NCBI GenBank assembly: GCA_000091205.1
Contig: AP006500.2
Direction: 5' to 3' (one strand)
DNA from: Cyanidioschyzon merolae
Lineage: Eukaryota
DNA: 64,000 bases
Shown in pieces: positions 2,211 to 50,443 of the stretch. The stretch's first letter is position 1, and each line of letters opens with the position of its first letter. The translations under genes were made by a program, and so were the position numbers. Below the pieces are notes generated by a model that had not been told where the DNA came from, did not search any database, and was given only the letters and a program-made list of their open reading frames with translations.

Positions 2211-4855
2211 GACTGGAGCGCTCCCCCCGTCTCTACACGATGAGCCGCCACCAGCTGCCCAGCAGCGCTGGAAAAGCCCACGGGCGCACGTTGCGTTCCA
2301 GCGACGGCAGGCGGCTGCGGCGCGCCCGAGGCCAACCTGACAGGCGTCCAGTTCGCTGGTATCCAAAACTTGCTATCGAGAGGGTCTTCGTGTGCTCTGT
2401 GGCTTCGCTGTCCACAAATAAGAAGAGTCAGGGGCGTGGGACAAAAGGTTTCAGGGGTTGTTTGGAAAATTAGGGGCCTCACTGCAGATGCGCTGCTTGC
2501 ACGGTGCGCTGAGCGCTGCGGGCGAGCGCCCAACACTACTGCACTCGTTACGCAACCGAGACGCCGTTACTCGGTGAAACCGAGAACAAGTTCACTCGTT
2601 TGATTGTCCGTAGTGTTGGCGAGTTGTGACGCATCAGGTAGCTGTGTTCTTGTGGGGTTAGCAAAGGGCGAGTGGCTGCTTTTCTGGGACGAATGGGCAG
2701 ACCGGTGGTGTCTGTTTCCGGAGCGATGCTCGCTCTGTGACAGTGCGCGCTACTCACAGCGCGACGCTGACTGGCAGAACGTGCAGCAGCTGGGATACCT
2801 GTATACTATGGATTACAGTGTGTAGTTGGATAGGGCTTCCCGCCTTGATCCGCGCTGCTTTCTGACTAATGTCGGCGGCGTGCGCTGGAGCACGCTCTAC
2901 CGAATACAGATCAGACAGCAGCGAAGCTTCTCAATGCGTAGAGGCGCCTGTAACTTGAAGCGCGTTACATTCTCGAGCGCGGAGTAGGAACGGCGGTGTT
3001 GTCAGGTTTGAAGGAAAGCAAACTTTCGTTTTTCGTTTTTGGTGCTTGTGGCTGCTGTTGGAACAGAAAATGGAATGATCGTCGAGGACGATTTAACTCG
3101 GATGACGACTCCAAGCTTCATCCTTGCGTGCGACGCTCGGCCGCATACGAACCAAGGTGAGCGCGCAGTACCGGCCCGTGCTGAATCGCGTAGCCACGGT
3201 TGCAGCGCTTGATACGCTGACATTCGTCCAGCGACTTCAGAGGCATCACGGATGAAGCGCAGGCACCTGTTGACGGCTCTGCATGCGAGGCGATGGTCTC
3301 GGGACAAGGGCGGCTTTCTGGAGAATCTCGCAAGAGACATGATTCAAGCAGCAATGAGGAACCTCTGAGAAAGGCGTCCAGCGCCACGAACGTTGTTACT
3401 GATGAATCTGGGAGTTTGCGCACGGCTCGATACTCGTTGGCGGCCCTCTTTCTGTGGAACGTATAGAGGGCCGCTTCCAAAGCGTTCATTCGAAGCCAAG
3501 AACAAGTACGTGCAGGTTTCGCTACCGCCCGGAGCATATCGCTCACGATTTACGAGGAACGCGGTCGATAGATCACTGCATACAACGCGAGAGCATTCAA
3601 TACGAAAGGGCTGCTCCATTCAAATCCCCAAAGAGAACCAGGTAAACAAGCACTGTGCAGTTGCAGATCGGTTATTGACGCCTAGTGCAGGAATCGAACC
3701 AGGTCTGGGCAGGATGCTCTTGCGCAGCACATGAGCCGCTACACAATGCTCCCTGCGAAGCAACCGACTCTACCTCTTCGATATAGACGACGCGCAGTAG
3801 CAGGCATTATCTATGCATGGAGTCAGAATGCTCCTGATGGTCGGATACTGGGCATTCGAAGGCGCCAACCTGCGTCTATGTGGTGGCAGGCTGCTGACTT
3901 AGCCGCTACGCCTATCGTCGACCAGGATGCCGCCATGACGCTGTGTGGAAACGCATTTGCGCATGTAAACAAGTCAAGGCCACAGCGTTGTACAGGGCTA
4001 TGGTTCCCGAACCTGGTTCCAGCGAGTGCCAGAGCCAGAGCGTCCGGTAGCTTAGTATGCAGTGAGGAGGTTCTCGGGCGTTACGGTTATGGTCGCCACG
4101 AGGCCTCTGTGGTGTTTGCAGCGAGAGTCTGGGTATCGTGGACGACCACGTGCGCCCTGGCCGCTCATTATCCACTGATGGATAGCATACGGTGCCGACT
4201 TGGGAATGAATTGGTACCGGTCCAAGTACCGAACATTCGCGTGCAACCTAAAATTTGCGTCCCGTTCCCCTGCCTCCAGAAACCACCGACTGCTTACGAT
4301 GGAGTTGGACAGACATGAGAGACCGGCGTTTGCAAAGCTAGATATAGCTGGGAGGACAATAAACCAGTCGCAGAATAAGCTCGCAAACGCCGGCGTTGAT
4401 CGCAACCGGAACAGACGCAAAGTTTTGCGTGTACCCCCCGAGTAAACGAAGTGTTCCTGTTCCAACACACTCCTGCTGAAACGGGTTATAGGCCGTAGCC
4501 GACCTAGGATCGAACGCTGCGATCCCGTGCGCTCCAGGTCAAACGTAATACCCTCGCACGCGTACACAAGTTTGCGCTATGGCCTCGTAGTGTTTCGCTT
4601 CGTCTGCCTGCCTTCTTACTTGCTCGGGGGGTCTCGATGCTTGCCTAGCGGAAACCGTAGTCCTGCGGCAACGTTCGCCACTGACTGCATTCTTGTTGTT
4701 CCGTCTCTGGGCGCAGTTGTCTCTACGCCCCGGCGGTGACGCGCAAGCCTGGGCTCACCAGCACCGCTGGGCACTGTCCCTGCAACACGGGACAGCAAAC
4801 ACAGCACCAGAGGACGTGTGTGCCTGGCCGGCTCGCTGGATTCGCTCCGAACTCG

Positions 4856-6692: not shown

Positions 6693-6725
<33 letters not shown>
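6693..6725. repeat. (AGC)n trinucleotide microsatellite, about 11 copies, intergenic.
   Basis: Direct read: agcagcagcagcagcagcagcagcagcagcagc. Confidence 0.8.
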
Positions 6726-6727
<2 letters not shown>

Positions 6728-7130
6728 TGGCGTTGATAGCTGCAACCGCAACATGCGACGTACTCTGCGCGTTGCGGTTTCGCTGCAACTCTCCATGACC
6801 AAGATGACGCCAATGACGATACCGAACGAGGCGTCTTCGGTAACTTGAAAACCTAGGCATGGACCGAGTGGTGCAACTGCTTCCAGCCCATTCGCCTCTG
6901 CGGAGCGTATTCATGTCCTAAGCGCTTCACCACGAAAAAATGGATTCGCTGCGTGCAAACTTTCGTCTCGACCTTGAGCGGTTTCGCTGCGGCCGCTCGC
7001 GGAAGAATCGGTGCCTCTGGGGCAGCGCTTTGCGATTTGCGGCGCATTCCATTCGCTGCAGCTGGCATCTCGGAACGTGCAAGCAAGCCTAGGAATCGTA
7101 TCCTGTCCATCCGTCGCGCATGTCATCCGC

Positions 7131-8483
7131 TCAATTTCCAGGAAACAGCAAGGACCCGATAAGGCATGCTGAAAGCGGTACCGTTATATTATCATCACCA
7201 GGCGCGACAAGTTCCACCACAGCACAGCACACAGTAAGCATTGCAATGCGCGCTGCCGCAGCAGCGATCCCGATGTCGACGTATCCCCACGCGTGGAAAA
7301 TCGCGATGTACAGACACGATACTAGAAACGCGCTGACAATGAACACCGTGGTGCCGCCGATGGTTTTCTGCGAGCCACCACCCCGTGGTAGTGGCCATTT
7401 CGGTGTTCGCCATCGACGCCCAATGAGATCCGCCATCCCGTCCCCGACACACATTTGGATCAGGGCCAGGATCCCTACCGGTGACGGGCCGCGCCAGAAG
7501 AGAAACGTACATACCGTTGTCGCTAGGCAGTAGTAAAGCGGTCCTTTGAGCGCTTCACTTCGATCTCCTTGAACCACCATCGATGCATTTGCGGTCATGG
7601 ATTGCTCCGAGGCGCCGTCCTCATCGGCATGCTCTCGGATCCATTTCTGCATTGCTGCCTTCTGTCGCGCCAACGCATTCACCAGCGTGTCTTGACTTAG
7701 ACCCAGACCTGCCAACAGAAGCCTCACCGAGAGAATCGCAGGCACCATGGCTGCAATGCCCTGCGAGCTCCTCGCAGCCATGCTCAGAAACGTCGACCAC
7801 GACTGGAGGGAGACCCCCGCGGGAACCGCGCCAGCTGCGACGTGATTCTCGGCAAAGAGTGGCCACGACAGCATGAAGAGAGGCACACTGGTGATGTGAA
7901 CGATCTTACGAGAGAGTGTTGACTCAATGTATCCGTTTGTAGCGAGCCAGTCCCATATTTTCAGCCACGCGTACGAGCCGATCAGAGCGAATACGGCGGC
8001 TGCCAGGTCGCGTGTGACGAGCGCGTTGCCGTGCACAACTTGAAGACTCTCGCGCGCCACTGTGCTTCCTGAAGCGTAGCAAGGCGCAGATAACGTCCCG
8101 ACCAGTGCAGCGCCCAACGTTTCCAGGTACTGCCGCCAACGCGAAGCGTCCCTGCTGGCGAATACCCCCACAGACGGTAAACGACGCTGCCAGACGCTGC
8201 CTTTGACCTCGAGTTCGTGAGCGTGCCATCCAGTGAACCTAGAACGCGTTTCGTTATCCTGTCCGCCTCTGGTGCAGTGACGTTGTGCATTGCGCGGCAC
8301 TTGGCCTCGGTTATCGGGCTGAAAGCAGCACGAGCCCCAGCATCGTCTACGCCAGACTGCTATCGTTTGCGTTGCATTCGTCGGGTGCTGCGCAACATCC
8401 AGGTAGCGCCGAAGTGTACCAAGCGCCGGCCAAACGAAGCAGACACTGTCACCAGGACGTGCCCTACGGTGCACGAGCCGCAT
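7131..8483 (-). CDS. Polyprenol kinase family membrane protein (dolichol kinase / phytol kinase-like, CTP-dependent).
   Basis: Multi-pass hydrophobic protein. The C-terminal motif ...LIQMCVGDGMADLIGRRWRTPKWPLPRGGGSQKTIGGTTVFIVSAF... matches the GDGxAxxxGRRFG...K(S/T)xxGSxA signature of the SEC59/VTE5 family. The true ATG start is probably internal to the track ORF. Confidence 0.55.
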   Translation of the reverse strand: MRLVHRRARPGDSVCFVWPALGTLRRYLDVAQHPTNATQTIAVWRRRCWGSCCFQPDNRGQVPRNAQRHCTRGGQDNETRSRFTGWHAHELEVKGSVWQRRLPSVGVFASRDASRWRQYLETLGAALVGTLSAPCYASGSTVARESLQVVHGNALVTRDLAAAVFALIGSYAWLKIWDWLATNGYIESTLSRKIVHITSVPLFMLSWPLFAENHVAAGAVPAGVSLQSWSTFLSMAARSSQGIAAMVPAILSVRLLLAGLGLSQDTLVNALARQKAAMQKWIREHADEDGASEQSMTANASMVVQGDRSEALKGPLYYCLATTVCTFLFWRGPSPVGILALIQMCVGDGMADLIGRRWRTPKWPLPRGGGSQKTIGGTTVFIVSAFLVSCLYIAIFHAWGYVDIGIAAAAARIAMLTVCCAVVELVAPGDDNITVPLSACLIGSLLFPGN

Positions 8484-8610
8484 CCACTACAGCCTGCTCG
8501 GAAGCTCCCGGCTGGCTACCCGAGAATGGACGTCTCGAAAGAACGAACGTCGCCTTGGCCGCAGATCGGCGCGTCGTCGCCTGCCGAAGGCCGCAGCCGA
8601 ACGCCCTATA

Positions 8611-8690
8611 TTGGTAGTGGGTAGTATTGGTAGTACATAGGATTGGTAGTAGGATCGGTATCAGTAATGATGGTTTTCGTGGTTGTGATA
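8611..8690. repeat. Imperfect GTA/GGTAGTA-rich simple repeat.
   Basis: ggtagtgggtagtattggtagtacataggattggtagtaggatcggtatcagtaatgatgg. Confidence 0.5.
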
Positions 8691-8772
8691 ATGCCTCCTG
8701 TGGCGAAGCGAGCGCCAACAGTGGGCGCAGTGAACGGAGCGCACAGCATCGATCTAGATATCGCTTTTAAGG

Positions 8773-9210
8773 GAACGAAACCTACTCAAGCGTTATGATC
8801 CACAAACGTCTATCTGAACGAACGGAGATCCGTTTCGCTTTATCGGGTAGCAATGATTCATCCGGGATAGAGTCTGTTTGGGCTTGTCGAATGTACATCG
8901 TGAAAATTCGCTCTGCTGGAGTCTCTATTCTATAGAGAACGAAACCTACGCAAGCGTTATGATACACAAACGTCTATCTGAACGAACGGAGATCCGTTTC
9001 GCTTTATCTGGTAGCAATGATTCATCCGGGATAGAGTCTGTTTGGGCTTGTCGAATGTACATCGTGAAAATTCGCTCTGCTGGAATCTCTATTTTATAGA
9101 GAACGAAACCTACTGAAGCGTTATGATACACAAACGTCTATCTGAACGAATGGAGATCCGTTTCGCTTTATCGGGTAGCAATGATTCATCCAGGGTAGAG
9201 TCTGTTCATA
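8773..9210. repeat. Tandem repeat with a 164-bp unit, about 2.7 copies at more than 95% identity.
   Basis: The unit 'gaacgaaacctac...ctctatt(c/t)tatagagaac' restarts at 8773, 8937 and 9101, an exact 164-bp period; the third copy decays near 9210. Track ORFs 8782..8967(-) and 8946..9131(-) are near-identical translations of this repeat, not genes. Confidence 0.85.
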
Positions 9211-9429
9211 CGCATTCATCGTACATCCTGGGGAAATTCTAGCCAAGCAGCCAAAACGAAGTACGAGTAGCACCGCACTGCTGCTGGCAGACGCGGGAAA
9301 CATGCGCTGGGGGTACGTGGCGCGCACGCCTCGCGCTTCCATCCATAGCGCTTTCCAGGCGAAACAGTGACACCTGGAAAGAGGCGATTTCCCGGAAACC
9401 TCGTGATTCAGCCTGGAACGATTTCCGAT

Positions 9430-11442
9430 ATGGAAAACTTCAAAACTCAGCGTCTCGGGGGTCAGGGTTCGCAACAGACCTCGGGAGAAACTGGCACTGC
9501 GACTACTGGCAGAAGGCGCACGGTGCGTCGCAAACGGGGCACTAGCGGTGCCACAGTGCGTCGGCCGGTGCGAGCGAAAGGAGCGCACGACGTGCAACAC
9601 CCAGCCGCTGCGTCGAGCTCGGAGAGCACTGCTCACAGGGATTCTTGGCATGGTCCGGAAGATGAGCATCCAAAGGGAGTGCTGGGCGCGACGCAGTCGA
9701 CCAAAAAAACCGTCGTGACTTACGAAACCAAGTTGGCGGCAAGCTTCGAAGAGCACCAGTCCCCGGCGCGTGTGCCTGTCGGACCGGCACAAACGCCCAC
9801 GAACGAGGCGGGAAGCGCGAGCGGAACCATGCCATTGTCACCACAGCAAACTACGGTGACACTGGGCACACCCAAGGGAGATCCCATGGCTCGGGCGCTG
9901 GCGCGCTGCAAGTCACCGGAGCGTCGTGGCCCCAGAACACCGCGGACTATCGAGCCAGCTCTGTCTGGCGAGCGCATAGGCGAGAATGCCCGGGCGGAGC
10001 AGGTGCCCAAGGCTCCGCACCGCGACGCCTTTTACGAAAAGGGAGCTGCATCTGTTGCGCATGAGCATTCAGAGACATCCGTTCCGGCAGAGGCGCCGAG
10101 CACAACTGATCTAAGTACCCAATCCACTATCAGCGTCGTCTCTCAAGCGGAAGGACCCAAAAAGCGCGTCCGAAAAAAGCAGAGACATGGACAAGAGCCG
10201 AAGAATGGTAGGATGTCTGCGAGCCGCCAAAAGCATGCGCATGCCAGTACGGATGGTGGTGCGCCTGAAGCTGCCACAAGTTCGCTTCTGTCGCGAACAG
10301 CGCTTACGGTGAGTCCTTCCCGCGGGAAAACTGAGCATGCTGCAGAAAGCATCAAGAAAGAGACAGCAATTAGGGGTGCAACAGCGAGCAAGGTCCAGGA
10401 GGATAATCGGCGATCGGCCTTTGCGAGCAGCGACAAAGTGGGGCAAGAAGAAAAGGATTCAGCGGAAAGGCGTCCAACTCGCCTCGGGCACGTGTCGAAG
10501 AAGAGCGTAGCCACGGGCGCGAATGCGCCTATTGCAGACACCAAATCGGTATCGCCACCACTGCACCAACTGAGTGCTACAGACAAGGAGCGCTTCCATG
10601 CCCCGGAAACCGGGTTTGCGTCTACGACTAGCAGGCGCGAGTCGCAGACTGCATCAGAGTTGCAAAAGCACCAAATGTCTATGAAAGATGCGCATGCAAG
10701 CAGCGAGCGCAACGAACCGTCACGGAAGAAGCGGGCCGCTGCGCTGTTACAACCCGCTGCGCTCGAGACAGACGCGCAATCGGGTACAAAGCACAGTAGC
10801 CCCTATCGAACAGCGGCATCAGCGCCGACGATAGAAACTAGACAGAAAACGAAGCGCCCTGTAGACTCGAAACCAGCGCTGGAACCTGCAATGCCGCTGA
10901 AGAGACCAGCCTCTGAACCAGCTGGTGTCGACACGGACCCCAGACACCATCGCTCAGCAGAGGCGACTGTAGCGCAGCTGCCAGCCGAGCGTCGTGGTAC
11001 GAGGCGCGTCCCAGCGAAGCGAGATGCCACCACCGAAGCCCAGCCTGCACCCCCGTCTCTGGATCACGATGCAGCTGAGCGCCTTGGTGACATACGTTTC
11101 AACGATCAGTGGAATTTATTTTTCGATCATGACAAGGGGCGATTTTATCCGGTCCATTTCGCCATTCATCCGAACGCGGCTGACGCTGCAGCCATGCACG
11201 CTGAAATTGAAAACAACGCCACTTTACAGCAAGAGCTCCGTGAGCTCGTTTTCACTATCTGTCGCCTGCCGGTTTTGCCGCCACGATGTATTTTGACCCC
11301 CTCCATGCTTGTTGAAATTGTCTTGGAGGACAGAGCCGATCTGCGCGGCTTGCTTGCTGGCAAATATGCGCTCTGGCGCGGCGATGTACCCGTATTGCCG
11401 GACAAGTTCTGGTACACATTTCTTATTCAAAAACTGCTCTGA
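9430..11442 (+). CDS. Hypothetical protein, long Ser/Ala/Thr/Lys-rich disordered region with a conserved-looking ~120-aa C-terminal domain.
   Basis: 690-aa open frame (track 9367..11442 from GTG; first ATG at 9430). The C-terminus (DIRFNDQWNLFFDHDKGRFYPVHFAIHPNAADAAAMHAEI...LPDKFWYTFLIQKLL) is non-repetitive and globular-looking. No family recognised. Confidence 0.5.
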   Translation: MENFKTQRLGGQGSQQTSGETGTATTGRRRTVRRKRGTSGATVRRPVRAKGAHDVQHPAAASSSESTAHRDSWHGPEDEHPKGVLGATQSTKKTVVTYETKLAASFEEHQSPARVPVGPAQTPTNEAGSASGTMPLSPQQTTVTLGTPKGDPMARALARCKSPERRGPRTPRTIEPALSGERIGENARAEQVPKAPHRDAFYEKGAASVAHEHSETSVPAEAPSTTDLSTQSTISVVSQAEGPKKRVRKKQRHGQEPKNGRMSASRQKHAHASTDGGAPEAATSSLLSRTALTVSPSRGKTEHAAESIKKETAIRGATASKVQEDNRRSAFASSDKVGQEEKDSAERRPTRLGHVSKKSVATGANAPIADTKSVSPPLHQLSATDKERFHAPETGFASTTSRRESQTASELQKHQMSMKDAHASSERNEPSRKKRAAALLQPAALETDAQSGTKHSSPYRTAASAPTIETRQKTKRPVDSKPALEPAMPLKRPASEPAGVDTDPRHHRSAEATVAQLPAERRGTRRVPAKRDATTEAQPAPPSLDHDAAERLGDIRFNDQWNLFFDHDKGRFYPVHFAIHPNAADAAAMHAEIENNATLQQELRELVFTICRLPVLPPRCILTPSMLVEIVLEDRADLRGLLAGKYALWRGDVPVLPDKFWYTFLIQKLL

Positions 11443-12672: not shown

Positions 12673-13039
12673 ACGACATGTAGCGATGATGTTTCTATCA
12701 CCAGAACGTTTTGACGGATTCCGAATTGCCAAGGACACGACGGATATCGGCGACCGGGAACGCGTTAACCAGTTCGTAGGATACTTTTCGGTCCCGCGTG
12801 CAGCAGTCGTAGAAGGTAAGCGTGGAGCCCTGAGTTGCTTGCTCTGTTCCTGTCTTTCGATTCTTTCCGAATTTGGTTTAGAGATACGGGTTCGATAGTC
12901 ACAGCGCAGCAATTAGGGCTTACGGATTCATCTAGACTCTGCGGATTCTCTGTCGGGTTTCCAGAGGGGCTTTTCCGACGCTTTGCCACTGGCGTTCTTG
13001 ACTTTACTAGAGTCGAGATGATTCGTGGCAATTGCGAAC

Positions 13040-13790
13040 ACGGGTTCGTATCGTAAAAGGTACCAATGTCCGATGCATGCGTACAAGCCTGGACTCTTCG
13101 CAGTACCGTACGTGTCGCGTGTTCAAAGCATGCATTCGTCGAGTATTCGATGTTTGCGTTGCAAGGGAACTCGTGGGTACTGCAACACGCGCCCCCAGAT
13201 GTCCAACGTAAAGACTCGACATCGTCCATTGACGAATTGATCACAAGCTCGTTCCAGAAACTGCAAGAACTTGTCAAATGAACGATTTCACTCGAAAGAA
13301 AAAATTTTCTTCTCTTTAATGTCATCAATGATGCGGCATTTTTTGCTGCAATTGGGTAATTTGTACGGGATGAGTCGCTGGATTTTCCCGTCTCTTCTGT
13401 TTGCATGGAAAATTGTCAAGAATTTGGAATTCATCCACCACAACAAGCGCATCTTGGAGAGCGTGCGTCAGCGCTTCGCACGAAAGGAGCGTGGAAACAT
13501 CGATATTTCTCGATTCGATCCCCAGCCTGGATCTCGTTTCCGATACTCGTTTCATCACGTACAACACCGCGCTCTGGGAATCCTTGATCACGTGAAACAA
13601 CCTGCGCTCGCAAGTGATGCGGACAGCCTACCCGCCCTGGAGATCGCCTCTCACAAGGCCGTGATCCTTCGGTACGGCACCGCGCACAGCAACGGAAGAG
13701 TGCGTCGAAGAGCACCCTCTGTAGCTGTCAAACACCTGCGCAACGCGATGAGGCGAACCTTCACGTACCACCGGGCGGTGCTCTGACGAA
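13040..13790 (+). repeat. Dispersed repeat family, copy A (about 0.75 kb; related copies at ~26620-27330(+) and ~48800-49520(-)).
   Basis: Shared sequence blocks with the other two copies, e.g. 'caagggaactcgtgggta' (18/18 identical to copy C), 'ttgatcacaagctcgt' (shared with copy B) and 'atgcgtacaagc'. Colinear similarity of translated ORFs: A 13271..13786(+), B 26888..27208(+) and C 48808..49098(-) share R(H/Q)RFxRxERxxI(E/D)IxR...RF.Y.FHH.QH...IL. Boundaries are approximate. Confidence 0.6.
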
Positions 13791-14127
13791 GAGGTATCCT
13801 AGCCATATGGGAACACCTGACCACTGTCAAGTGTCATCGATGCGAACATATACTGAGGCTGCATACAAACGAGATGAACTTAGAAGGCGACGTGTACATG
13901 ACGACTTTCATCCGTTCATCAGGTGCGTCATTAATAGCCAGCAGCGGCGTCATCGGGACTCGAATGCTGTCATCAACACGTTTCGACTTCGGACAGCAGC
14001 GCTGAACGGAAAGGAGTCAACTGCGAATATATATCGCTGAGGATAAGAGCAAGCAAATTTAAGCAGTCACAGAAAAAGCCTACAAAAACTTGTACATATG
14101 GCAGTAAGAAGAGACCCAAACGTTTGA

Positions 14128-15366
14128 GTGTACACCAGAGTTAGGAATCTCCTTCCGTTGTACGCGGAGCAGGGGATCTGTGCCCGCTTCGTGCAGCCGG
14201 CGATCCGACGACGCCCGTGGAGCGCCCCGCCGTCGCGCCCGCGCGTCGATCGCACGCGACAAGGCGCTGCGCTGGGGCGGCACCTGCGCTCAGCGACACC
14301 CGAATTCCAAGACTCGGAAATACTTCTGCTACTGCAACTGTTACTGCATCAGCGAGGTGCTATGGGAGCTATGGAACGCACGCCGGGTGCATTCATCACA
14401 ACTTGGAGCAGCCGATTGAACGTCTCGGTTAGGAGCTTCCGAGGCGCACCAGCGGCGAATACACTCGATGTTCGCCGCGGCAACAGCGAGCGAGAGCGCT
14501 TCATTCTTGCGCAGCCGCCACTACGTCCAGCAAGACGTGTGCAACCTATCCGGGACTGGCGTGACCAACGCCCAGCAACCGTTAAAGAACAGCGCTCGCG
14601 GGCGCTCAGCACTGTCGCATCGCTTAGCGTCGGAGACGTCACACTTGAACACGTTGGCGCTGAAGGCACGACTTCCTATCGCGTTTATCTGCGAGTGGCA
14701 CGCGGCGACCGTCTTGAGCGCATCTCGCCGTGGCATGACCTGCCGCTATTCCCACGTGGCAACGCAGAAACGCTTCTTTTCGTAAATGAAATTCCGAAAG
14801 GCACCCGTGCTAAGATGGAAATCGCAAAAGATGAACCACAGAACCCAATTAAACAGGACACGAAAAAAGGCGCTCTGCGTTTCTACGAATACGGACCTTC
14901 GCTGATCAACTACGGTGCGCTACCGCAAACCTGGGAGGATCCTGCTGTCGTGCACACCGAGAGCGGATGCAGTGGCGACAATGACCCGCTGGATGTTATC
15001 GAGATTGGATCACAGGCCATGCCGACTGGGGCGGTGTACGAAGTGAAGCCTTTAGGGATGCTCGGCTTGATCGATAGCGGCGAATTAGACTGGAAGTTGA
15101 TCGCTATCCGTACGGAAGATCCGAAAGCCGCTCTCATTCAAGGTCTCTCCGATATGGAAGAGCACTTTCCTAACCTTCTTCACCAAGTTCGTGAGTGGTT
15201 CCGCCTCTACAAAACCGCAGAGGGTAAGGGCGAGAATACCTACGCGTACAATGGGAAGGCCCTAGACGTGTCGTTTGCGCTGCAGATCGTACGCGAGGCC
15301 CACGAGAACTGGCGCAAGCTGAAGAGTGGTGAACGCGCAAATACTGAGCAGCTCGCCCTGTCATAA
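14128..15366 (+). CDS. Soluble inorganic pyrophosphatase (family I); likely true start at the ATG at 14362.
   Basis: ...SVGDVTLEHVGAEGTTSYRVYL...ISPWHDLPLF...DNDPLDVIEIGS... (canonical D-x-D-P-x-D active-site block) ...KLIAIRTEDP.... The first 78 codons of the track ORF are unrelated, low-complexity and probably not translated, or form a targeting extension. Confidence 0.85.
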   Translation: MYTRVRNLLPLYAEQGICARFVQPAIRRRPWSAPPSRPRVDRTRQGAALGRHLRSATPEFQDSEILLLLQLLLHQRGAMGAMERTPGAFITTWSSRLNVSVRSFRGAPAANTLDVRRGNSERERFILAQPPLRPARRVQPIRDWRDQRPATVKEQRSRALSTVASLSVGDVTLEHVGAEGTTSYRVYLRVARGDRLERISPWHDLPLFPRGNAETLLFVNEIPKGTRAKMEIAKDEPQNPIKQDTKKGALRFYEYGPSLINYGALPQTWEDPAVVHTESGCSGDNDPLDVIEIGSQAMPTGAVYEVKPLGMLGLIDSGELDWKLIAIRTEDPKAALIQGLSDMEEHFPNLLHQVREWFRLYKTAEGKGENTYAYNGKALDVSFALQIVREAHENWRKLKSGERANTEQLALS

Positions 15367-16678: not shown

Positions 16679-17009
16679 CTTCGAACGAATGCCGTTGCGA
16701 GCTCGCGCACTGCAGCAGGAACTGGGCCCACAGGTCGCAGATGCCGTTTCAGTCCCGCTCGCGTCAGAGTGTCAAGCCTAAATTTATCTTGATGCTCTCT
16801 ATGAAAAGCCAGATCTATACAGATAAGGCGTACCTGTGCCCTATCCTGGCGTACTACCCCCGTGTTGAACGCAGCAGAGGCGTGCACTCGTGTCGATGCC
16901 CGCGAGTGCCAGCGGCGGGCGCCGGCGTCGTCGACCCGCTCTCGCAGATCGTTTCGCTGCACTGCGGTGTGGCGACACAGCGTGCAACACACCATGAGAA
17001 CATCATTAT

Positions 17010-17635
17010 GAACACGAACTTGAACAACACTTGTCACGAATTGGTGTGTGTATGTGTTCAGGATGCCAAAGCATCGATCGCACTGATGTATGAACACGAA
17101 CTTGAACATCACTTGTTACGAATTGGTGTGTGTGTGTGTTCAGGATGCCAAAGCATCGGTATGAACACGAACTTGAACAACACTTGTTACGAATTGGTGT
17201 GTGTGTGTGTTCAGGATGCCAAAGCATCGATCGCACTGATGTATGAACACGAACTTGAACATCACTTGTTACGAATTGGTGTGTGTGTGTGTTCAGGATG
17301 CCAAAGCATCGATCGCACTGATGTATGAACACGAACTTGAACATCACTTGTCACGAATTGGTGTGTGTGTGTGTTCAGGATGCCAAAGCATCGATCGCAC
17401 TGATGTATGAACACGAACTTGAACATCACTTGTCACGAATTGGTGTGTGTGTGTGTTCAAGATGCCAAAGCATCGGTATGAACACGAACTTGAACAACAC
17501 TTGTTACGAATTGGTGCGTGTGTGTGTTCAGGATGCCAAAGCATCGGTATGAACACGAACTTGAACAACACTTGTTACGAATTGGTGTGTGTGTGTATGT
17601 GTTCAGGATGCCAAAGCATCGATCGCACCGATTAC
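17010..17635. repeat. Minisatellite with 8 tandem copies of a 71-bp / 82-bp unit, each containing an internal (GT)5-8 run.
   Basis: Unit 'tgaacacgaacttgaaca(a/t)cacttgt(c/t)acgaattggtgtgtgtgtgtgttcaggatgccaaagcatcg' with or without the 11-13-bp extension 'atcgcactgatgta'. Copy starts at 17010, 17091, 17162, 17244, 17326, 17408, 17479 and 17550. It lies in the divergent spacer upstream of the spermidine synthase start (16678). Track ORFs in 16741..17748 are repeat translations, not genes. Confidence 0.85.
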
Positions 17636-18662: not shown

Positions 18663-20407
18663 TTGATTCGAACGACGGCATCCATATCGTCCAAAAAATG
18701 GCCTATGCTTCCACGGTGGCTAAAGAGGCTGCAAATCAAATGGAGGAACAAAGTCGCAGGTCGACCAACATCAAAACTTGGAGCGACAGCCGGCTCCAAA
18801 TGTCAGGTACAGCAACCCATGGCGCCTGCCGGCTGCTGTGTGGCAGTTCCGAGCACACCACGGTCGACGACGACGCGTCTTTCCACTGACGACTACTCTG
18901 TTTCCGAAGCGTCCAGCCAGTTTAAACCTCAGCTCCTGGAAGACTGGGTCATAGACTTGAGTGCTGAGCCTTTGCGTCTTTCGGGAGCAGCCGAGCATCC
19001 CTGCGGTGGCCTGTTCGAGAAGGGCCTCCATCGGTCGCTCGCTGTGGACGCGCTCTGGCAGCAAGCTGTCGAGTCTGACCGAACGCCAGCCCGAACATGC
19101 GCCCAGTACGATGCAGTGCGTTACCTGCCGGTAGATGGCACCACAGACGTGTTGCTTCCGCAGACACATGCACGGGACTGGGCATACGCCCCGCCCGCCG
19201 ACGCCAAGCAGCCTCGGTCGGCGTTACTGGCTCGGCGTCGATGGACAGAGGGTAACCTCATTGTCGGCAGGAGGCTGCAGCCCCTGGTTGGTGTCCAGGG
19301 TTCTGGTTCCGACGGGCGCTATGTGTTTCTGGCACCCGCCGTGTCCACAGAAATGCAGCAGCAGCAGCAGCAGCAGCAGCGTCCGTCACCTGCTGATGGC
19401 AATGCCGCTGCTCATCACTTGGTCGGCTCAGAGCGGATCCCGACCGAGATCCTGTCCGAGGACCCATTAGATCTGGTAGAGATGCTGGCGCTCGCGCTAG
19501 ACCGGCAACAAGTGGAAGCGAACTGTGGCCAGCAAGCTGAGCGAAGCGTACATGAAACCGGATACGAGACGTCGGACACCAGGCATCAGCACAGGCAGGC
19601 ATCGCTCCACGCGAGCGAAGCATCGCCGCATTCTTCGGATGGTACGCTGCACGATGCTGAGGCTGGTGCCGCTGCTTGTGCCCCAGTCGGCGATGCTTTC
19701 CGCATGGATAACATATCTACAGCGTTTGTCGCTGATAACGAGCAGGAGCTGCCCGTTGAATCCAGCGAACTCACACGTGCACCGCTATCACGCCGAGCGC
19801 TTGTTCGCACCGTCCGAAGCGTTGCCGAGTATATCCACGCCGTGCTGCTCCGTTGGACTAGCGATGATCACGCAGACGGTGGCGGTGGTCTCAGCGCTGC
19901 ACCCCGCGAGCTCGATGAACTCACCACGGCAGGTATCGTGGAACTGCTCGAGATCCTGCTCTGGAACGAGGGCGTCATCATCCTGAACGATACAGACGGT
20001 CTCACTGCAGCGGTTTACGGAGCCTCCGCGTTGGCAGACTTGGCACTCTGTGCACCGTACGAAACGCTCGTAGGAAGCGCCTCCGTCCTCGAATGCCTCC
20101 GCCAGACGATTGCCGCTCAGGAACGGTACCGCTTTGGTCGGCCGCCTTCGCCATTATCGCAGCTGCTGCTACGTGAAGCTTGGCGATGCCTTCGAAATAT
20201 CACTGGAAATACACGAGTCGCTAATCGACTTGTCTTTTTAGCGCAAGATGCAGAAAGAAACAAGGAACCGTCGCTCATCGAACTCGCGCTGCTCCTGAGT
20301 GACAATGCGGCGATACCGGCTGCGATCGCCGTCGAGGCCTGGGCCTGTATACGCAACTGGTGCGCTGCTGCCGTGGAGCCCGTGGATCCCTCTCAACCGA
20401 GCAGTTC

Positions 20408-26304: not shown

Positions 26305-26619
26305 CAGTCCTGAAGGCAACGCGTTGTCAAAGCGGAGCGGGAACACGCGCGCTACCTGCACGACGCCCGAGTTCGATGAAAATGGAAGCGTGAATAATAT
26401 GTTCTGCTTCTTGCTTTCGAACTGTTTTCAGATCTGATTTTCGGATCCAAAAAGTTCTAGACGCGAATTTTAGCAATACGGATTCACGGATTCATGCGTC
26501 GGTTTCGGATGCTTTGCTGAGTTTGCAGTCTGGCTTGCTTGAGGCTTTGCCGCCGATACTCATGATGTCATGGGTATCGAAATGAATCGCGGCTCGCTCG
26601 AGCGAGGGATCTTAACATA

Positions 26620-27330
26620 CACGATATCCTTATCCAATGGATGTGTACAAGCATCCGCAACGCTCCTTTCCTTAGGTGTAGCATTGCTCAAATAACGAAT
26701 TCTTTCGAGGTTTCGATCTTACTGCTTCAAGGCATCTCGTGGGCCCCGTGTGTCGCGCCCCTTGATAGACGTTGAAGTTTTTACAACTTGGGCCTGAACG
26801 ACTTGATCACAAGCTCGTACAGAACGCTCACTGAACAGGTACGGTCAGGGAATCGATTCCGATCGAAAGATAAATCGTTTTCTCTTTGTGGCTGCCGAAG
26901 AACAGCGCACTCGACAGCAGCTCGATACCTCGGACGGGATATGCTGCCAGATGCCTCCATCTCTATTGCTTGCATGGGAAAGCGTCTTGGACATGGACGT
27001 CAGTCATTGCAGCGATCGTTTCCCGTCGGATATACGTCACCGCTTCCAAGCAAGAAAGCGTAGACGGATCGAAATACGTCGATCTGTTCTCCAGCTTCGA
27101 TTTTCGTTCCGGCACTTGTTCCATCATAGACAGGATCCAGTTCCACAGATCCTCTGTCTCATGGAAGAGCGTGCACTGCCATGTACAGAGGAGGAATTAC
27201 TCGCCTGAACCATCGCCCAGAGCAAGCGAGAGATCCCAGGAGATGTTACCGGGTGCGGCTGCCGAGGCAAGGAGCGAGTGGAGCCTTCTGTTCCAGTCAA
27301 GGGCGTGCACCGAGCGCTGACGCAAACGTT
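26620..27330 (+). repeat. Dispersed repeat family, copy B.
   Basis: Blocks shared with copy A: 'atgtgtacaagc', 'caagg..tctcgtggg' and 'cgacttgatcacaagctcgt'. With copy C: 'gggaatcgattccgatcgaa'. Translated similarity of 26888..27208(+) (...PSLLLAWESV...RHRFQARKRRRIEIRR...FHHRQDPVPQIL) to A and C. It lies in the 1.9-kb divergent spacer between the helicase and ERH genes. Confidence 0.55.
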
Positions 27331-28115
27331 CATGCTCCCTGTGGCGATACTCGACGGGCAAGGAAGAAGTGTACAAGACGTATGAGGACACCTCACCACC
27401 GCCAATGGCACCGCTGCAAAGAGCGCAGCGATGTTGTCTACGTAAGTGATGGAAATGGCAAGCGAAGCGGCGTTCGCAACGACCGCTTTTGCTTGAAGTG
27501 CATCGACAGCAGCCGGAAGCAACGAATTCGGTGCTTGCAAACTGCCATCAACATGCTGCGTCTGCTCAAAAAGATGCTGGCGGACAGGAGAGACCGGCCT
27601 GTTCAAAGCCGGAGATAAGAAAAGGGCAAAAAGGTCGCAGAACAAGCACTCCCTGGCTGGTGGTGAACTCAGACCCAAACTTTAGAGTGTAACTTCCCAC
27701 ACGGTCCCGTTCTTTCGCCTGCTGACACAGTTGTAACACGCACGCATCCAGGCATCGTTTCAACTACCGATGAGTACGGCGATGACGACAAGAGCAGTTG
27801 TTCGGGTACCTGATTCGCTTCCTTGCAGAATCCACGTTTCTAACCAGACGATTCCAGACCCCAGGTCACTCTACAGAGCCAGAGTACCAACGTAATTGTT
27901 TCCTCGGCTCTCGTGAACGTATCCTCATATTGCCGAGACGTCCATCTCGTCGGGGTACGAGCTCCCAGCACCTGTGTTTCTCTTGTTTCGCTGGTACGGC
28001 GGCGTCGGCAGCCACGGCGTTTCGCTTCGCGCACACGTGGCCTCTTCCTGCGTTTGGCAACGAACGAAGAGGGCAACGATTGCCTTCTAGTTTCGCATTG
28101 TTTCTTGGTGCCTTG

Positions 28116-39835: not shown

Positions 39836-41872
39836 ATGGACGATTTCCAAATCCCTGATATCCAATGCACCTTTCGGTTTCATGGGTCCGTATGCATACA
39901 CACGCAAACAGAGCCTGAGGGATTGGGGGCAATCGTCGGGATTCGGCCGCCTCGCACCGGTCGGGTGTGCTGCGCAGCGGCGGCGACGCCACCCGGGGGA
40001 TACCTGCCACACTGGACACAGCACCAGACGAGTGTGCGGCGTTTCAGAGAGCCCGTGTTGCTGCTCATGAGACACCGCCGACGAAAGTTGCCGGGTAGCG
40101 GACACCAAGCTGAACGCCGTGCACCTGGTCGGCTGCCGCGCTTCGTTGTCGACGCGGTAGCTGATGACGAGTCCATCGCATCATCTGAAGCAGAAGACGA
40201 AAACGCGGTGCTCGGGGAATCGGTTGCTCTCGACGGCCTAGAGAGCAAGAAGCTGCGCAGTTTAAGTGGTTTACGTGGAAGCTCTACAGCAGATCTCGAT
40301 CCGAGTCTCGAACAGGCAGCCGATGCCGAAAGCGCTTCCAGTTCTGAAGCGGAGGTAAGCGAGCAATCAAGACGTCTACACCTTGCAAAGGCGTACCTGG
40401 AGCGCATCGGAGCAGCAAGGTTTACTGAAGACGATCTGCACCAGAGAGCAGACGAAGACAGCCTCGAGGCACGAGATGCAACCGCTCTTGGTGACGCAAG
40501 CGACGATGACACTGACAGTGCGAGCGACGCGTGGAACGAGGTTCTCTATAGAGAGGCGCAGCAACTTCGCGGACAGTACTATGCTTCTGAAATGGCCTTC
40601 GATGATGTGGAATCCATGCTTCCTGCTGAACCTACGCTCACGGCTTTCGGTCACAAAAGGCCCCCGACCTGTATCACCTTTTTGCCCGACGGTGAGGTGC
40701 TCGGGCCTCCCCGATACGCCATCACTGGTGGAAAGGATGGAGCACTGCTTCTATGGGATATCGAGCGTGGTGCCAAAAGCATTGTCTCCGCAAGTGCGAC
40801 CTCTTCCGCCGGGTCCGCCGCAAAGCCCGAGATTCTCTGCGTCGCAGCGTCGCGTGACGGGCGGTTGGTCGCTTCCGGCAGCCGCGATGCATCCATTCGT
40901 ATCTATGATTTGCGACAGCGGAACATATCTGATGACTCTCCCTCGATACCTATCCTTTCGCTTGTACATGTCGCGCGGGGTCATCGGGGTGCCGTCAGCG
41001 GACTGGCCTTCTTTCGGGACGTTTTCCGGAAACATGCCGGACCGGGTGTTTCAATCGGCGTCGATCGCAACTCCACAGAAGAGAGTCTCTTCAGCGCCTC
41101 CTTCGATCGAACGCTTCGTTTCTGGAGCATAGAGCGTTCCAAAGCTGCACCGCAATCCATTCTGGATTCAGGCCCAGATGCCGAGGCCGGTCTGTACGAC
41201 GGCCGCAACATGTCCCCGTGGAGCGTGCACTACGTCGACAGCTACTACGGCCACGAAGAAGAGGCGACGAGTCTCTGCTGTGCGGCGTGGGGCAGGCTAT
41301 TATCTGGCGGCCGAGATCGCACCGTGCGTTCTTGGAAAGTCTACGATGATACCCAGCTTGTGTACAGAGCACCTCGAACTGCTGGTGCACAGATCGGTAC
41401 CAGCATAGACTGTGTTGCGTGGGTGAGCCCGACCACCTTCGTATCGGGTGCTGATGATGGATCGCTTTCACTCTGGTCTACAGCGAAGAAGAAACCGGTC
41501 CATAAGATTCTTGACGCCCATAAGAATCCCGTATGCCCGTGGATATGTTCGGTGGTGAGCCCTGAGGCCGCCAATCTGGTTTGCAGCGGCTCTGCGGACG
41601 GTTGCGTACGCCTCTGGCGTGTTCGTATGCAAGCATCTGTGAAAGCCAGCGCCAAGAGCGCGAAACGGCACGGGTCCTTACCAGAATCCCTTGAGGCGCT
41701 TGGGACGTTGCCATTCGCCGCCAGCGGGTTCTGTAATGGCATTGATTGTGTTCTTCAGAAGCGTACTCTTTACATTACAGCGGCTGTGGGTCAGGAACAT
41801 CGATTCGGTAAGTGGTACGTCGACCGAAGCCTTCGGAATGGACTCGCGTTCTGGCGGATACCGCTCGCATGA
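39836..41872 (+). CDS. RRP9: U3 snoRNP WD40-repeat protein Rrp9/U3-55K-like.
   Basis: Basic/acidic N-terminal region including ...SRRLHLAKAYLERIG..., matching the U3-55K block (EKKLRLAKLYLEQL). It is followed by multiple WD40 repeats (SGSRDASIRIYDL, SASFDRTLRFWSI, SGGRDRTVRSWKV, SGADDGSLSLWS, SGSADGCVRLWRV). The true start may be an internal ATG, e.g. at 40067. Confidence 0.65.
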   Translation: MDDFQIPDIQCTFRFHGSVCIHTQTEPEGLGAIVGIRPPRTGRVCCAAAATPPGGYLPHWTQHQTSVRRFREPVLLLMRHRRRKLPGSGHQAERRAPGRLPRFVVDAVADDESIASSEAEDENAVLGESVALDGLESKKLRSLSGLRGSSTADLDPSLEQAADAESASSSEAEVSEQSRRLHLAKAYLERIGAARFTEDDLHQRADEDSLEARDATALGDASDDDTDSASDAWNEVLYREAQQLRGQYYASEMAFDDVESMLPAEPTLTAFGHKRPPTCITFLPDGEVLGPPRYAITGGKDGALLLWDIERGAKSIVSASATSSAGSAAKPEILCVAASRDGRLVASGSRDASIRIYDLRQRNISDDSPSIPILSLVHVARGHRGAVSGLAFFRDVFRKHAGPGVSIGVDRNSTEESLFSASFDRTLRFWSIERSKAAPQSILDSGPDAEAGLYDGRNMSPWSVHYVDSYYGHEEEATSLCCAAWGRLLSGGRDRTVRSWKVYDDTQLVYRAPRTAGAQIGTSIDCVAWVSPTTFVSGADDGSLSLWSTAKKKPVHKILDAHKNPVCPWICSVVSPEAANLVCSGSADGCVRLWRVRMQASVKASAKSAKRHGSLPESLEALGTLPFAASGFCNGIDCVLQKRTLYITAAVGQEHRFGKWYVDRSLRNGLAFWRIPLA

Positions 41873-48256: not shown

Positions 48257-48799
48257 GCGCAGATGCTATCAGCGTGTGACGCTCTGCACAGGATGGCAAT
48301 GCACCGGCAACCAACTAGCTCGATGTCGATCGAAACCCATACTAGGATGAAGTGGAGCAGGCCCTGGAACATGGGCGCATATACTACAGTTTGGTGCTTT
48401 TTTCCATGGTATTCACCACCAGCCTTTGTGGAATGCAGCTGCGACTGCTCCCTGTTCCTCTATCTGTCCTCTAGCTTGCCATGCGTCGATCTCTTCCTCC
48501 CCTTCAGCTCTGCATTCAGCAGACAAAGTATGTTGATGGCAGTGTTCACGTCTTGATCACGCCGCTTGCGGTTGTTGTTGACGCATTCCACGTGGAGGAG
48601 GAAGCTGCGATCTGCGCTTCGCTGACCTTTCTCGCCTTCGTTGTATGGAGCCTCGGTGCGCTTTCTGCAGCAGTGGCACTGGACTGTGGTCGGATGTTTC
48701 CGTATGTCGACGAGACCTCCTCTCCCGCAGGTCGCTCGGTGGCGCGTGAGCGCTTGGATCAACACTCGCTGCATGCCCTTGACAAGTACAGACGGCTTT

Positions 48800-49520
48800 T
48801 GTTGGTGTCAACCTCCGATTCCGCCCTTACTGCTGTATCGTATGATCAGGGGCTTGTTGTGCCGTACCCCAGTACCGATTGCTCTGTCCGCTGCATACGC
48901 AAACGCACGTTGTTCCATTCGATAGATGATTTCTGGAACACGATGTTGTCCATGATGAAAAAAGTACACGAAGCGAAACCCAGGCTGAAGAAAAAGTCGA
49001 GAAATTTCGATCCATCTACGCTCTCTTCTTGAAAAGCGATGTCGCACTGCCCACTGCAAGCGATCCCCGTGATGACAAAAGTCCAACACGGGGACCATTT
49101 TCCGTGCGACCAGAACAGATGAGATGCTCTATAAGCGTATCCTGTGAAGGCTAACATGCTTCAGCCGCGTCCTGTCTTGTCGATGGCTACAAATAGCGTA
49201 GGGTTTGTCGTTCGAGTGGAATCGATTGCTTGTCGTCATAGGTTCAGGGAACGAGCGACATGAGCCTGTCTCGATGTCGTCGAGTGCCAAGTCGCGTGCT
49301 AATCTTCGTATAATCCGGCGGTGCGAGTTGCGCTACCCACGAGTTCCCTTGAAAGAGAAGCATCGGAACCTTGAAGAATGTGTGATTCGAGCATCGACAC
49401 ATAAAGAAATGAGACGAACCGTGATTTCGACGTCTGAATTCGATCATGATATTGTTTATTCTACGAATCCTTATTCTAGGGCGTTTCCAATCATCTTGAT
49501 TCCAATGAAGTAACGAATTC
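48800..49520 (-). repeat. Dispersed repeat family, copy C (reverse orientation).
   Basis: The reverse complement carries 'caagggaactcgtgggta' (identical to copy A) and 'gcaatcgattccactcgaacg' (similar to copy B). Track ORFs 48808..49098(-) (...RHRFSRRERRWIEISRLFLQPGFRFVYFFHHGQHRVPEII...RYSSKGG) and 49244..49687(-) (...FQGNSWVAQLAPPD...) parallel the A and B ORFs. Confidence 0.55.
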
Positions 49521-50443
49521 CAGCGGCACCGCGTCGGAAGCGCCACCCGGAGCAGAAATGCAAGAATCCTGAATCTACGTATGAATTCTGAGAAACTTCT
49601 TGGCGCAAGTTTCATCTCGAAGATGTACATGCGAAACAATCTTCGGGAGAGAATCGACAGGAAAGAATAGAGCTTGCACTTCATCATTCTATTTCACGCT
49701 GACATCCATCCACTCAGTAAGATAATCGGGCTGTTCATCAGCATGATTTTGATTCAAGTGCACATGTTGTTGACGTTGTTCGTGATCGCGATACGTTCAT
49801 TTGAAGCGCATCGTGTGCTCGTTCAGATAGGGACACACTCATGGGGCTAGAAGCGCGAACGTAGCGAGTAATTCGGAATCACATGACGTCGTAGGAGTAG
49901 GAGGCAAACGCTGCCTGCAGGTCGATATGGCGTAGGAAAAAGTCGTCTGCGGAGCATCTTTATTTGGCTGTGCAAGGGACGCGTGCCTATTGGCCACACG
50001 TTCGATTCGTCCTCTAGGCAGTTCAAGGCGCCGTTATCGAGAGCGCAAGACAGCGTTCACGGACGCTTGTGCAGCAGTGGATACCGCGTCGTCTCTGGGC
50101 GACGAACGCACCAGACGAATATCTCGATACTACTATTATCCCTGTTACTGTTAAAGTTGTGGTCACTCTCCATTCAAAATCATTGCAATATCTGCAGCGC
50201 ATGGAGTGTCCGACGGTACCCATGCAAGGAAAGCGTCACTTGGGGCGATCGACTGACGATTCAGGGCTGTGGGATGAAATGAGATGCTCGCGGTATCTTG
50301 GGGTCGCTTGGAGGCGCTCAATGCTCGCCCATGTGCAAGATAAAGCACGTACGTGACACCGCCTTGCTTTGAGCGCAGGGGGCTGCCCCCGCTAGCGGCC
50401 CAAGAGCAGCACTGCTTGAAGTAATCAACCATGAGGATGAGCG

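Follow-up and report, generated by a model that had tools for sequence, protein, structure and literature searches.

Introduction

Fanzor1 genes, which code for eukaryotic RNA-guided nucleases resembling TnpB, occur in Mariner/Tc1 transposons in an established association (PMC3627910; PMC10530073), described for PUl-1, a 3.6-kb mariner+Fanzor1 transposon of Pythium with relatives in Pythium and Phytophthora, in which both open reading frames (ORFs) are intact and the TA duplication is clear (Bao & Jurka 2013, PMC3627910). The red alga Cyanidioschyzon merolae, whose genome is compact, almost intron-free and reportedly very poor in transposons (PMC1955436), carries the Fanzor1 element CMe-1A, which is 3169 bp long, is present in about 150 copies and lacks terminal inverted repeats (TIRs; PMC3627910). 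Here we analyze a stretch of 64,000 nucleotides from chromosome 18 of C. merolae 10D (hereafter, the window), in which a preliminary description based on the sequence had outlined a dispersed repeat with three copies (A, B and C) and a supposedly conserved ORF bearing an FHH.QH motif. These copies are very probably what remains of an IS630/Tc1-mariner-type DNA transposon of class II (cut-and-paste), which was non-autonomous and derived by deletion from a composite mariner+Fanzor1 element.

Previous work on the C. merolae genome reported 'eight class II elements' with weak similarity to bacterial transposases (E 0.071 to 6e-7; Nozaki et al. 2007, PMC1955436) and no miniature inverted-repeat transposable elements (PMC3964958). 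The only C. merolae Fanzor element found in the literature searched was the TIR-less CMe-1A. We infer that CMe-1A is probably the '253-copy interspersed element' with WSV486 similarity described in PMC1955436.

The family analyzed here resembles PUl-1 in its organization, with the sequence of a mariner-like DDE transposase followed on the same strand by Fanzor1 sequence and enclosed by short TIRs (about 22 bp, compared to 24-33 bp in PUl-1 and its relatives). Both modules are homologous to their PUl-1 counterparts in BLASTP searches, with the consensus transposase matching the PUl-1 mariner transposase at 1e-5, both Asp motifs being aligned, and the C-terminal Fanzor part of the consensus matching the PUl-1 Fanzor protein at 2e-7. 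The family differs from PUl-1 in its host, a red alga instead of an oomycete, and in its low identity to that element (22-27%), and the unit is a 1.37-kb derivative without the transposase C-terminus and the N-terminal two-thirds of Fanzor, all copies being pseudogenes. With CMe-1A it shares the genome and a Fanzor1-type sequence presenting the YG(A/T)GR and NRD(F/L)NAAINI motifs, but protein identity to the family consensus is about 24%. Furthermore, CMe-1A has no transposase and no TIRs, retains intact copies and shows about 80% identity to its own consensus, whereas the family is older (about 72-76%), TIR-bounded and dead. The possibility that copies A-C belong to CMe-1A was rejected, as BLASTN (word size 7) and TBLASTN searches with the 3169-bp consensus and its protein returned no match in A-C.

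Extent and size of the family

In a self-BLASTN of the window, C aligned with both A (12973-13868 with 49539-48641) and B (26663-27569 with 49413-48515), at identities of about 66% and about 65%, respectively, which confirmed the three colinear copies of the preliminary description. TBLASTX and multiple alignment extended the repeat by about 230 nt in the 5' direction and about 390 nt in the 3' direction, yielding a unit of about 1.37 kb in place of the 0.75 kb proposed initially. An identity of 60-70%, as first estimated, applies to the best blocks only, and pairwise identity over the full unit was 54-62% in a nine-copy alignment. In this alignment the similarity among paralogs begins and ends sharply, dropping to about 35% beyond the termini. 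Searches with nhmmer and the family profile produced alignments spanning 12808-14221(+) for A, 26368-27784(+) for B and 49704-48285(-) for C, and revealed a fourth, 5'-truncated copy (D) that had escaped the initial count (Table 1). The exact blocks quoted in the preliminary description were also recovered: within the window, CAAGGGAACTCGTGGGTA is found solely in A and C, at 13162-13179(+) and 49334-49351(-), and TTGATCACAAGCTCGT solely in A and B, at 13237-13252 and 26803-26818, with a chance expectation of 0 matches in both cases.

An incomplete scan of JGI metagenome contigs, using a protein alignment of the three copies and two peptide patterns, identified 27 loci that fall into nine paralogous groups, corresponding to A, B, C and six others. 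Identity within groups is 98-99.9%, and these sequences represent strain variants of Cyanidioschyzon, whereas identity between groups is about 58%, the same divergence observed among A, B and C. Two additional full-length paralogs were detected beyond the nine groups. The family hence comprises at least 11 full-length loci plus fragment D, with at least eight contributed by hot-spring metagenomes beyond the window copies; this copy number is a lower bound, obtained from the window and metagenome contigs.

The presence of four copies within 64 kb could be accounted for by ancient segmental duplications of a single spacer, with no transposition involved. The loci, however, are dispersed over different long contigs in the metagenomes, share sharp common boundaries and are flanked by unrelated sequence. 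Pairwise identities (0.54-0.62) form a star-like matrix, in which the four window copies show no closer relationship among themselves than with the other members. Together with the consensus TIRs and the transposase homology documented below, these features make an origin by segmental duplication hardly credible. The lack of a closer relationship among window copies also leaves recent local hopping unsupported.

No ORF longer than about 180-184 aa was found across the element at any individual locus. In contrast with these single loci, the majority consensus of nine representatives (1425 nt) presents two long open frames, which are maintained in a refined consensus of eleven full copies and the fragment: a 261-aa transposase frame and a 336-aa frame containing Fanzor sequence in its last 180 aa or so. 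Each copy is about 72-76% identical to the consensus. The restored ORFs alone were not taken as proof of coding, since two consensus frames are open, and the frames were told apart by homology.

A transposase remnant in the 5' half

Frame 3 of the consensus carries FVAIDETAL, RTGYAPRGSR and CFIMDNIAFHKSS within its 5' 0.7 kb, approximately, and matches the Pfam DDE_3 domain (PF13358) with 38.3 and 36.3 bits, above the curated cut-off of 28.6. The NCBIfam model for IS630 transposases (NF033545) aligned with the consensus over profile positions 23-260 of 299 (E 1.8e-14), with a score of 53.9 that lies far under the equivalog cut-off of 100 for this model. A weak match to the helix-turn-helix (HTH) domain HTH_Tnp_Tc3_2 (E 5.8e-4; 20.5 bits, with a cut-off of 31.5) was detected at the expected position upstream of DDE_3, and those to HTH_33 and HTH_32 were weaker. 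The consensus contains the first and second Asp motifs (IDET and MDN) of the catalytic core, and the third catalytic residue is absent.

The family shares with IS630/Tc1-mariner elements a DDE_3 core with IDET and MDN and the presence of TIRs, to which a putative N-terminal HTH and a probable TA target may be added. It differs from them in that about 260 of some 300-340 transposase residues are represented, and the absence of the third catalytic residue identifies it as a non-autonomous derivative, rather than as a functional member of the group.

A Fanzor1 remnant in the 3' half

The first lead to the identity of the 3' half was a C..C-(15-20)-C..C-(6-8)-RD.N.A.NI pattern located downstream of the FHH.QH ORF in all copies, which recalls the zinc ribbon and RuvC-III motif of TnpB, Fanzor and Cas12f proteins. 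Over the 3' 0.55 kb, approximately (about 180 aa), frame 2 of the consensus reads ...RMEQRALACAAD...KPVIIGYGTGRGNGGGHRGEPSVPVKGMH...WEHLTTVKCHRCEG...FRLCMKCVNNSRKRRNRDLNAAINIL... The Pfam Cas12f1-like_TNB profile (PF07282) matched the first consensus with 25 bits and the refined consensus with 31.9 bits, above the cut-off of 26.3. The E-value improved from 0.02 with copy C alone to 2.2e-5 with the nine-copy consensus and 1.5e-7 with the 12-sequence consensus, and such a steady rise in score from copy to consensus is what genuine homologs in a decayed state should show. The consensus zinc ribbon encompasses two CxxC pairs (CHRC...CMKC), and the RuvC-III motif, (N)RDxNAAxNI, reads RNRDLNAAINIL in the consensus, RDSNAVINT in copy A, QDVNTAINIL in copy C and, in a degraded form, CLQTAINML in copy B. 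The consensus Fanzor frame also matched the NCBIfam guided_TnpB model at its C-terminus (E 1.2e-3), and the CMe-1 protein (1e-4).

The best relative among 5.8 billion proteins was an intact protein of 551 aa (P0085; HMMER 6.8e-42, BLASTP 1e-34), which aligns in turn over 430 aa (1e-13) with the published Fanzor1 protein CMe-1, in a stretch that contains the IETDGV, GxDPG (RuvC-I), YGxGR and NRDFNAAINI motifs. Since homology to P0085 starts only at residue 316 or so of 551, the sequence is a fragment of Fanzor and not a Fanzor gene, and the unit has no equivalent of the RuvC-I motif GxDPG (residue ~211 of P0085) or of the N-terminal WED/REC half. Upstream of 'RMEQRALA', the alignment of frame 2 with P0085 (query residues 40-159) was discarded as spurious on account of its low identity and abundant gaps. 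A complete, TnpB-sized pseudogene of about 400 aa covering the whole unit, suggested by motif spacing and length, was likewise dropped, because the 5' half corresponds to a DDE transposase in another frame.

P0085 is encoded at positions 5569-7224 of a 7.8-kb contig (L031; JGI 3300035702, Ga0399894_004485), next to genes for an RNA ligase, a 2H-SAK (2H-phosphoesterase-like) protein and a Peptidase_S74 protein of the tail-fibre-chaperone type, and to small ORFs. No eukaryotic markers were detected on this contig, which looks virus-like, and a scan of IMG/VR viral contigs with P0085 returned no relatives. A related Fanzor1 gene lies at positions 8001-9330 of a eukaryotic contig with Skp1 and Peptidase_M16 neighbours (L032/L033; JGI 3300031217, ENA ERZ27316288).

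Searches with single decayed copies as queries were negative, with no match in a word-indexed protein search or, for copy C, in NCBIfam. Nothing meaningful was obtained from PDB sequence searches with copy C, the three-copy profile, the consensus or P0085. NCBI and UniRef proteins gave no match to either half of the element, and hence no annotated 10D protein corresponds to it.

The FHH.QH frame

The preliminary description had proposed, among other options, that the copies constitute a small multi-copy gene family, which would express a basic FHH.QH protein from each locus. The ORFs on which this proposal was based, 13271..13786(+), 26888..27208(+) and 48808..49098(-), do exist as listed, so that ORFs of 96-171 aa are present in that frame in all three copies, and the comparison of A and C scores best in it (131 bits, versus 92 and 75). 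The homologous frame in the motif region is, however, the +1 frame, which scores above the Pfam cut-off as a DDE transposase: TTTCATCATGGACAACATC reads FHHGQH in consensus frame 2 and FIMDNIAFH, the second-Asp motif of the DDE core, in frame 3. Copy C retains FFIMDNIVFQ in ORF 48846..49157(-). Given that FHH.QH is out of frame, the frame first noted is not the best in TBLASTX for the B-C and A-B pairs, which score higher in other frames and on the opposite strand.

In copy A, the frame first noted is the wrong frame of the transposase remnant from 13391 to about 13585 and the true ancestral Fanzor frame from about 13586 onward. The end of the shared pattern, '...I(I/L)RY', looks protein-like because it corresponds to the 'V(I/V)xYG' strand of Fanzor1. 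In addition to the lack of NCBI and UniRef matches and of any ORF exceeding about 184 aa, the gene family proposal is contradicted by the frameshifts and stops detected in all nine aligned copies and by the absence of codon periodicity (see below), and it is accordingly very improbable. The suggestion of a transposable element with a captured ORF fared better, since the copies do derive from an old non-autonomous transposable element, but on the same evidence the FHH.QH ORF is neither a captured nor a conserved gene.

Terminal inverted repeats and a common internal junction

The consensus is bounded by TIRs of about 22 bp, CCGTGTCAGATTAAAATGGAAC at the 5' end and GTTCCATTTTATTCTGATATGGG at the 3' end. 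Within a 19-nt core, 17 positions match precisely at the opposite terminus (20/24 when one gap is allowed), at the very points where the copies cease to resemble each other, and the next best match in the element reaches 11/19. The TIRs are significant only in the consensus; among the window copies, copy C alone presents a detectable TIR, with arms at 48339-48354 and 49677-49692 that are 81% complementary. The copies share some 50 nt from the stop codon to the end of the 3' TIR. Taken with the two domain homologies, these termini place the repeat as a remnant of an IS630/Tc1-mariner element carrying a Fanzor1/TnpB remnant, where no known transposable element superfamily had been recognized before, and the family consists of at least 11 full-length loci with consensus TIRs, not of three copies without conserved termini.

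The onset of Fanzor homology, at both the protein and the nucleotide level, corresponds to P0085 residue ~316 and profile position ~785, which places the junction between the two modules 10-30 codons past the second transposase Asp. All aligned full-length copies that span this junction are colinear across it, and a single locus (L010) shows an extra internal deletion of about 200 nt, located 5' of the junction. The sharing of one junction indicates that a single internal-deletion derivative was amplified.

The unit could conceivably have arisen by accident, through insertion of a Fanzor-element fragment into an unrelated mariner element or recombination with it, so that no single two-gene parent ever existed. 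The failure to find a full-length parent and the lack of a neighbouring transposase at intact Fanzor relatives agree with such an origin. On the other hand, the two modules match their PUl-1 counterparts and are arranged likewise, in order as well as in orientation, and a related Fanzor locus of another organism, L032, shares the 3' terminus that is complementary to the 5' TIR. The Fanzor1 ORF of L032 is frameshifted after about 250 residues, and the sequence just past it, GTTCCATTTTTTCCTAA, is similar to the 3' TIR described here, implying that this TIR belongs to a Fanzor-bearing element. No convincing TIR pair was detected in the surroundings of L032, nor a transposase or a 5' TIR adjoining its Fanzor gene. 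A chimeric origin is hence regarded as improbable, and whether the unit arose in this manner or from a single parent, what was amplified is one and the same dead, non-autonomous element.

For the preferred deletion derivative, the following course of events is the most probable. The ancestor would have been a PUl-1-like composite element, with a mariner-like DDE transposase gene followed by a same-strand Fanzor1 gene between TIRs of about 22 bp. Through an internal deletion it would have lost the end of the transposase gene that specifies the third catalytic residue, the spacer and approximately the first 315 Fanzor codons, including RuvC-I, which left a 1.37-kb unit without functional coding capacity. 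Having retained both ends, this unit could have been mobilized in trans by a full-length relative formerly present in the lineage, presumably with duplication of a TA target site, and a single burst would have taken it to at least 11 loci, four of them within the window. Each copy has since decayed independently and neutrally to its present 72-76% identity with the consensus, approximately.

Several observations weigh against this interpretation. Domain signals are sub-threshold in single copies, as exemplified by fragment 48463-48807(-) of copy C (PF07282, E 0.0042) and by ORF 26886..27320 of copy B (DDE_3, E 0.17), and the classification thus depends on a consensus built from no more than 9-12 copies. 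The target-site TA is visible in a minority of these strongly decayed copies, with TA after the 3' end in 3/9 and T in about 7/9, and with TA or CA before the 5' end in three. Metagenome and protein searches did not find a full-length autonomous parent combining a transposase, a complete Fanzor and these TIRs, and the closest intact Fanzor relatives lie on contigs without an adjacent transposase. Both frames show some homology over consensus positions ~785-850, where the DDE_3 alignment can be stretched over 'AYSPRGSP' although Fanzor homology is already detected from ~785, so that the junction can be placed only within about 60 nt. Lastly, conservation along the element is mildly heterogeneous, its variance in 20-nt windows lying above that of all 2000 column permutations.

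Decay and absence of signs of function

All nine aligned copies are pseudogenes with respect to the consensus frames, with 2-8 frameshifting indels and 3-12 in-frame stops per copy. Copy A presents six frameshifting indels and seven in-frame stops, copy B eight and ten, and copy C two and five. Mismatches are evenly distributed among codon positions in both the transposase part (0.257/0.255/0.238, p 0.40) and the Fanzor part (0.285/0.245/0.273, p 0.07). Together with the star-like identity matrix, this pattern fits one amplification burst followed by independent neutral decay.

Paralog identity is 0.60-0.62 in the HTH-DDE segment (consensus ~300-800; ~13100-13600 in copy A), compared to 0.50-0.58 elsewhere.

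The preliminary description had also raised the option of a structured RNA or regulatory element with conserved boxes. Such a non-coding RNA or cis-regulatory module, maintained by selection in gene-flanking spacers, could be an exapted transposon. This explanation would account for the exact 16- and 18-nt blocks shared by pairs of copies, for a conservation more heterogeneous than under column permutation and for the location of the copies 80-250 nt from genes in a very compact genome; moreover, active Fanzor elements have a guide RNA that overlaps with their 3' end and TIR (PMC10530073). Nonetheless, no Rfam family matched anywhere in the window, and the 3' region of the consensus (222 nt), the expected place for a guide RNA, folded no better than shuffled sequences (z 0.27). 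The termini and 3' untranslated region are the least conserved parts of the element (0.48-0.54 identity), and the exact blocks fall within the HTH-DDE segment, in the putative HTH region of the ancestral coding sequence. The best 20-nt conservation window is no outlier (P 0.056), and the elements are more variable between strains than their mostly genic flanks (1.02% versus 0.75% variable sites; odds ratio 1.36, p 0.007). We tentatively attribute the uneven conservation to alignment quality and rate variation, and consider selection for an RNA or regulatory role to be a poor explanation, somewhat less probable than a chimeric origin. No sign of present coding or RNA function was seen, and on sequence grounds the copies are probably functionless today.

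Copies and neighbouring sequences in the window

The positions of the four copies and of their recognizable parts are compiled in Table 1.

Table 1. Elements of the mariner-Fanzor1 family in the window and remnants identified within them
Feature	Position	Strand	Basis
Copy A, full-length decayed element	12807..14174	+	nhmmer family profile positions 2-1419, score 1194; ends from nine-copy alignment
Copy A, 5' TIR remnant, heavily decayed	12807..12828	+	mapped from consensus
Copy A, transposase remnant, N-terminal ~235-260 aa of IS630/Tc1-mariner	12882..13585	+	consensus homology, mapped
Copy A, putative HTH region	~13104-13249	+	mapped from consensus
Copy A, DDE_3 region	13318-13613	+	mapped from consensus
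Copy A, first catalytic Asp codon position	13324-13326	+	mapped from consensus
Copy A, second catalytic Asp codon position	13560-13562	+	mapped from consensus
Copy A, FHH.QH motif	13550..13567	+	one-base-shifted reading of the transposase motif F(I)MDN(I)AFH
Copy A, Fanzor1/TnpB remnant, C-terminal ~180 aa	13586..14126	+	consensus homology, mapped
Copy A, RuvC-II-equivalent VILRYG	13661-13684	+	mapped from consensus
Copy A, zinc-ribbon CxxC pairs	13832-13843, 13915-13926	+	mapped from consensus
Copy A, RuvC-III RDSNAVIN	13951-13983	+	mapped from consensus
Copy A, 3' TIR remnant	14152..14174	+	mapped from consensus
Copy B, full-length decayed element	26367..27731	+	nhmmer family profile positions 2-1409, score 1169
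Copy B, 5' TIR	26367-26388	+	mapped from consensus
Copy B, transposase remnant	26445-27154	+	mapped from consensus
Copy B, Fanzor remnant	27155-27685	+	mapped from consensus
Copy B, 3' TIR	27709-27731	+	mapped from consensus
Copy C, full-length decayed element	48336..49707	-	nhmmer family profile positions 4-1418, score 1227
Copy C, 5' TIR	49707-49686	-	mapped from consensus
Copy C, transposase remnant	49630-48925	-	mapped from consensus
Copy C, Fanzor remnant	48924-48384	-	mapped from consensus
Copy C, 3' TIR	48358-48336	-	mapped from consensus
Copy D, 5'-truncated: Fanzor RuvC-III region to 3' TIR	4270..4487	+	nhmmer profile positions 1167-1374, E 1.7e-24

Of seven long ORFs of the window compared by exact sequence, five proved identical to annotated 10D proteins and a sixth belongs to a cluster with the 10D protein among its members. 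Genes in the window include RAD5 (BAM82481), DDB1 (BAM82484), an Arp4-like gene (BAM82490) and CMR276C, and the neighbours of the copies comprise RAD5, Arp4 and pyrophosphatase genes, copy B being located 180 nt upstream of RAD5 and copy C 80 nt downstream of Arp4. The four family copies lie inside about 45 kb (window positions 4270-49707) of a 16.5-Mb genome said to hold eight class II elements. Their clustering on chromosome 18 means either that the family is much larger than reported or that the region is locally enriched.

The sole match of CMe-1A in the window is an unrelated TE-N2_CMe-like sequence at 39388-39718(-), just upstream of ORF 39836..41872, which contains two pieces similar to the CMe-1A consensus, one to nt 194-282 (73% identity) and the other to nt 502-533 (84%), both in the 5' part of that consensus. 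This 5' part corresponds to a separate repeat, TE-N2_CMe, and the sequence in the window is probably a fragment of TE-N2_CMe or of the CMe-1A 5' region. Self-BLASTN also outlined two tandem arrays, one at 17001-17632 with offsets of about 82 nt (87-93% identity) and another at 8765-9206 with offsets of about 164 and 327 nt (94-96% identity), the latter overlapping ORFs 9121..9792(-) and 9367..11442(+). Six low-complexity runs of 24-40 nt (6683-6727, 19351-19394, 21808-21840, 50809-50840, 53426-53484 and 54940-54972) cross-match in self-BLAST, several of them inside or adjoining long ORFs.

Discussion

The family is rated here as a new, dead mariner/IS630-Fanzor1 deletion derivative in a red alga, of a kind that is itself already known. 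The eight class II elements counted previously in this genome are probably copies of this family, given that IS630 represents the bacterial branch of Tc1-mariner. They are similarly transposase-related, of a similar order in copy number and best matched by bacterial transposons, although this identity is our inference and the published text gives no family description, termini, Fanzor content or coordinates for them.

A more far-reaching scenario, which we consider unlikely, is that these relics are all that is left of a second Fanzor1 lineage, borne by mariner/IS630, which reached the Cyanidiales in an ancient invasion separate from that of CMe-1A, maybe via a large DNA virus, in view of the virus-like contig of P0085, and that one or more copies, given their proximity to genes, were possibly co-opted as promoter or untranslated-region sequence.

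The value of the finding lies mainly in annotation, as it explains about 4.3 kb of "unannotated intergenic" sequence in the window and exposes a tempting conserved ORF as a frame artefact. Nothing is changed by this family in what is known of the workings of Fanzor or mariner elements. With the reconstructed consensus at hand, these loci can be masked and other Cyanidiales screened for a living parent. A genome noted for its near lack of transposons (PMC1955436) thereby gains a class II element bounded by TIRs, and the results suggest that C. merolae would once have hosted a second, mariner-type Fanzor1 transposon besides CMe-1A, extending the mariner-Fanzor association to red algae.

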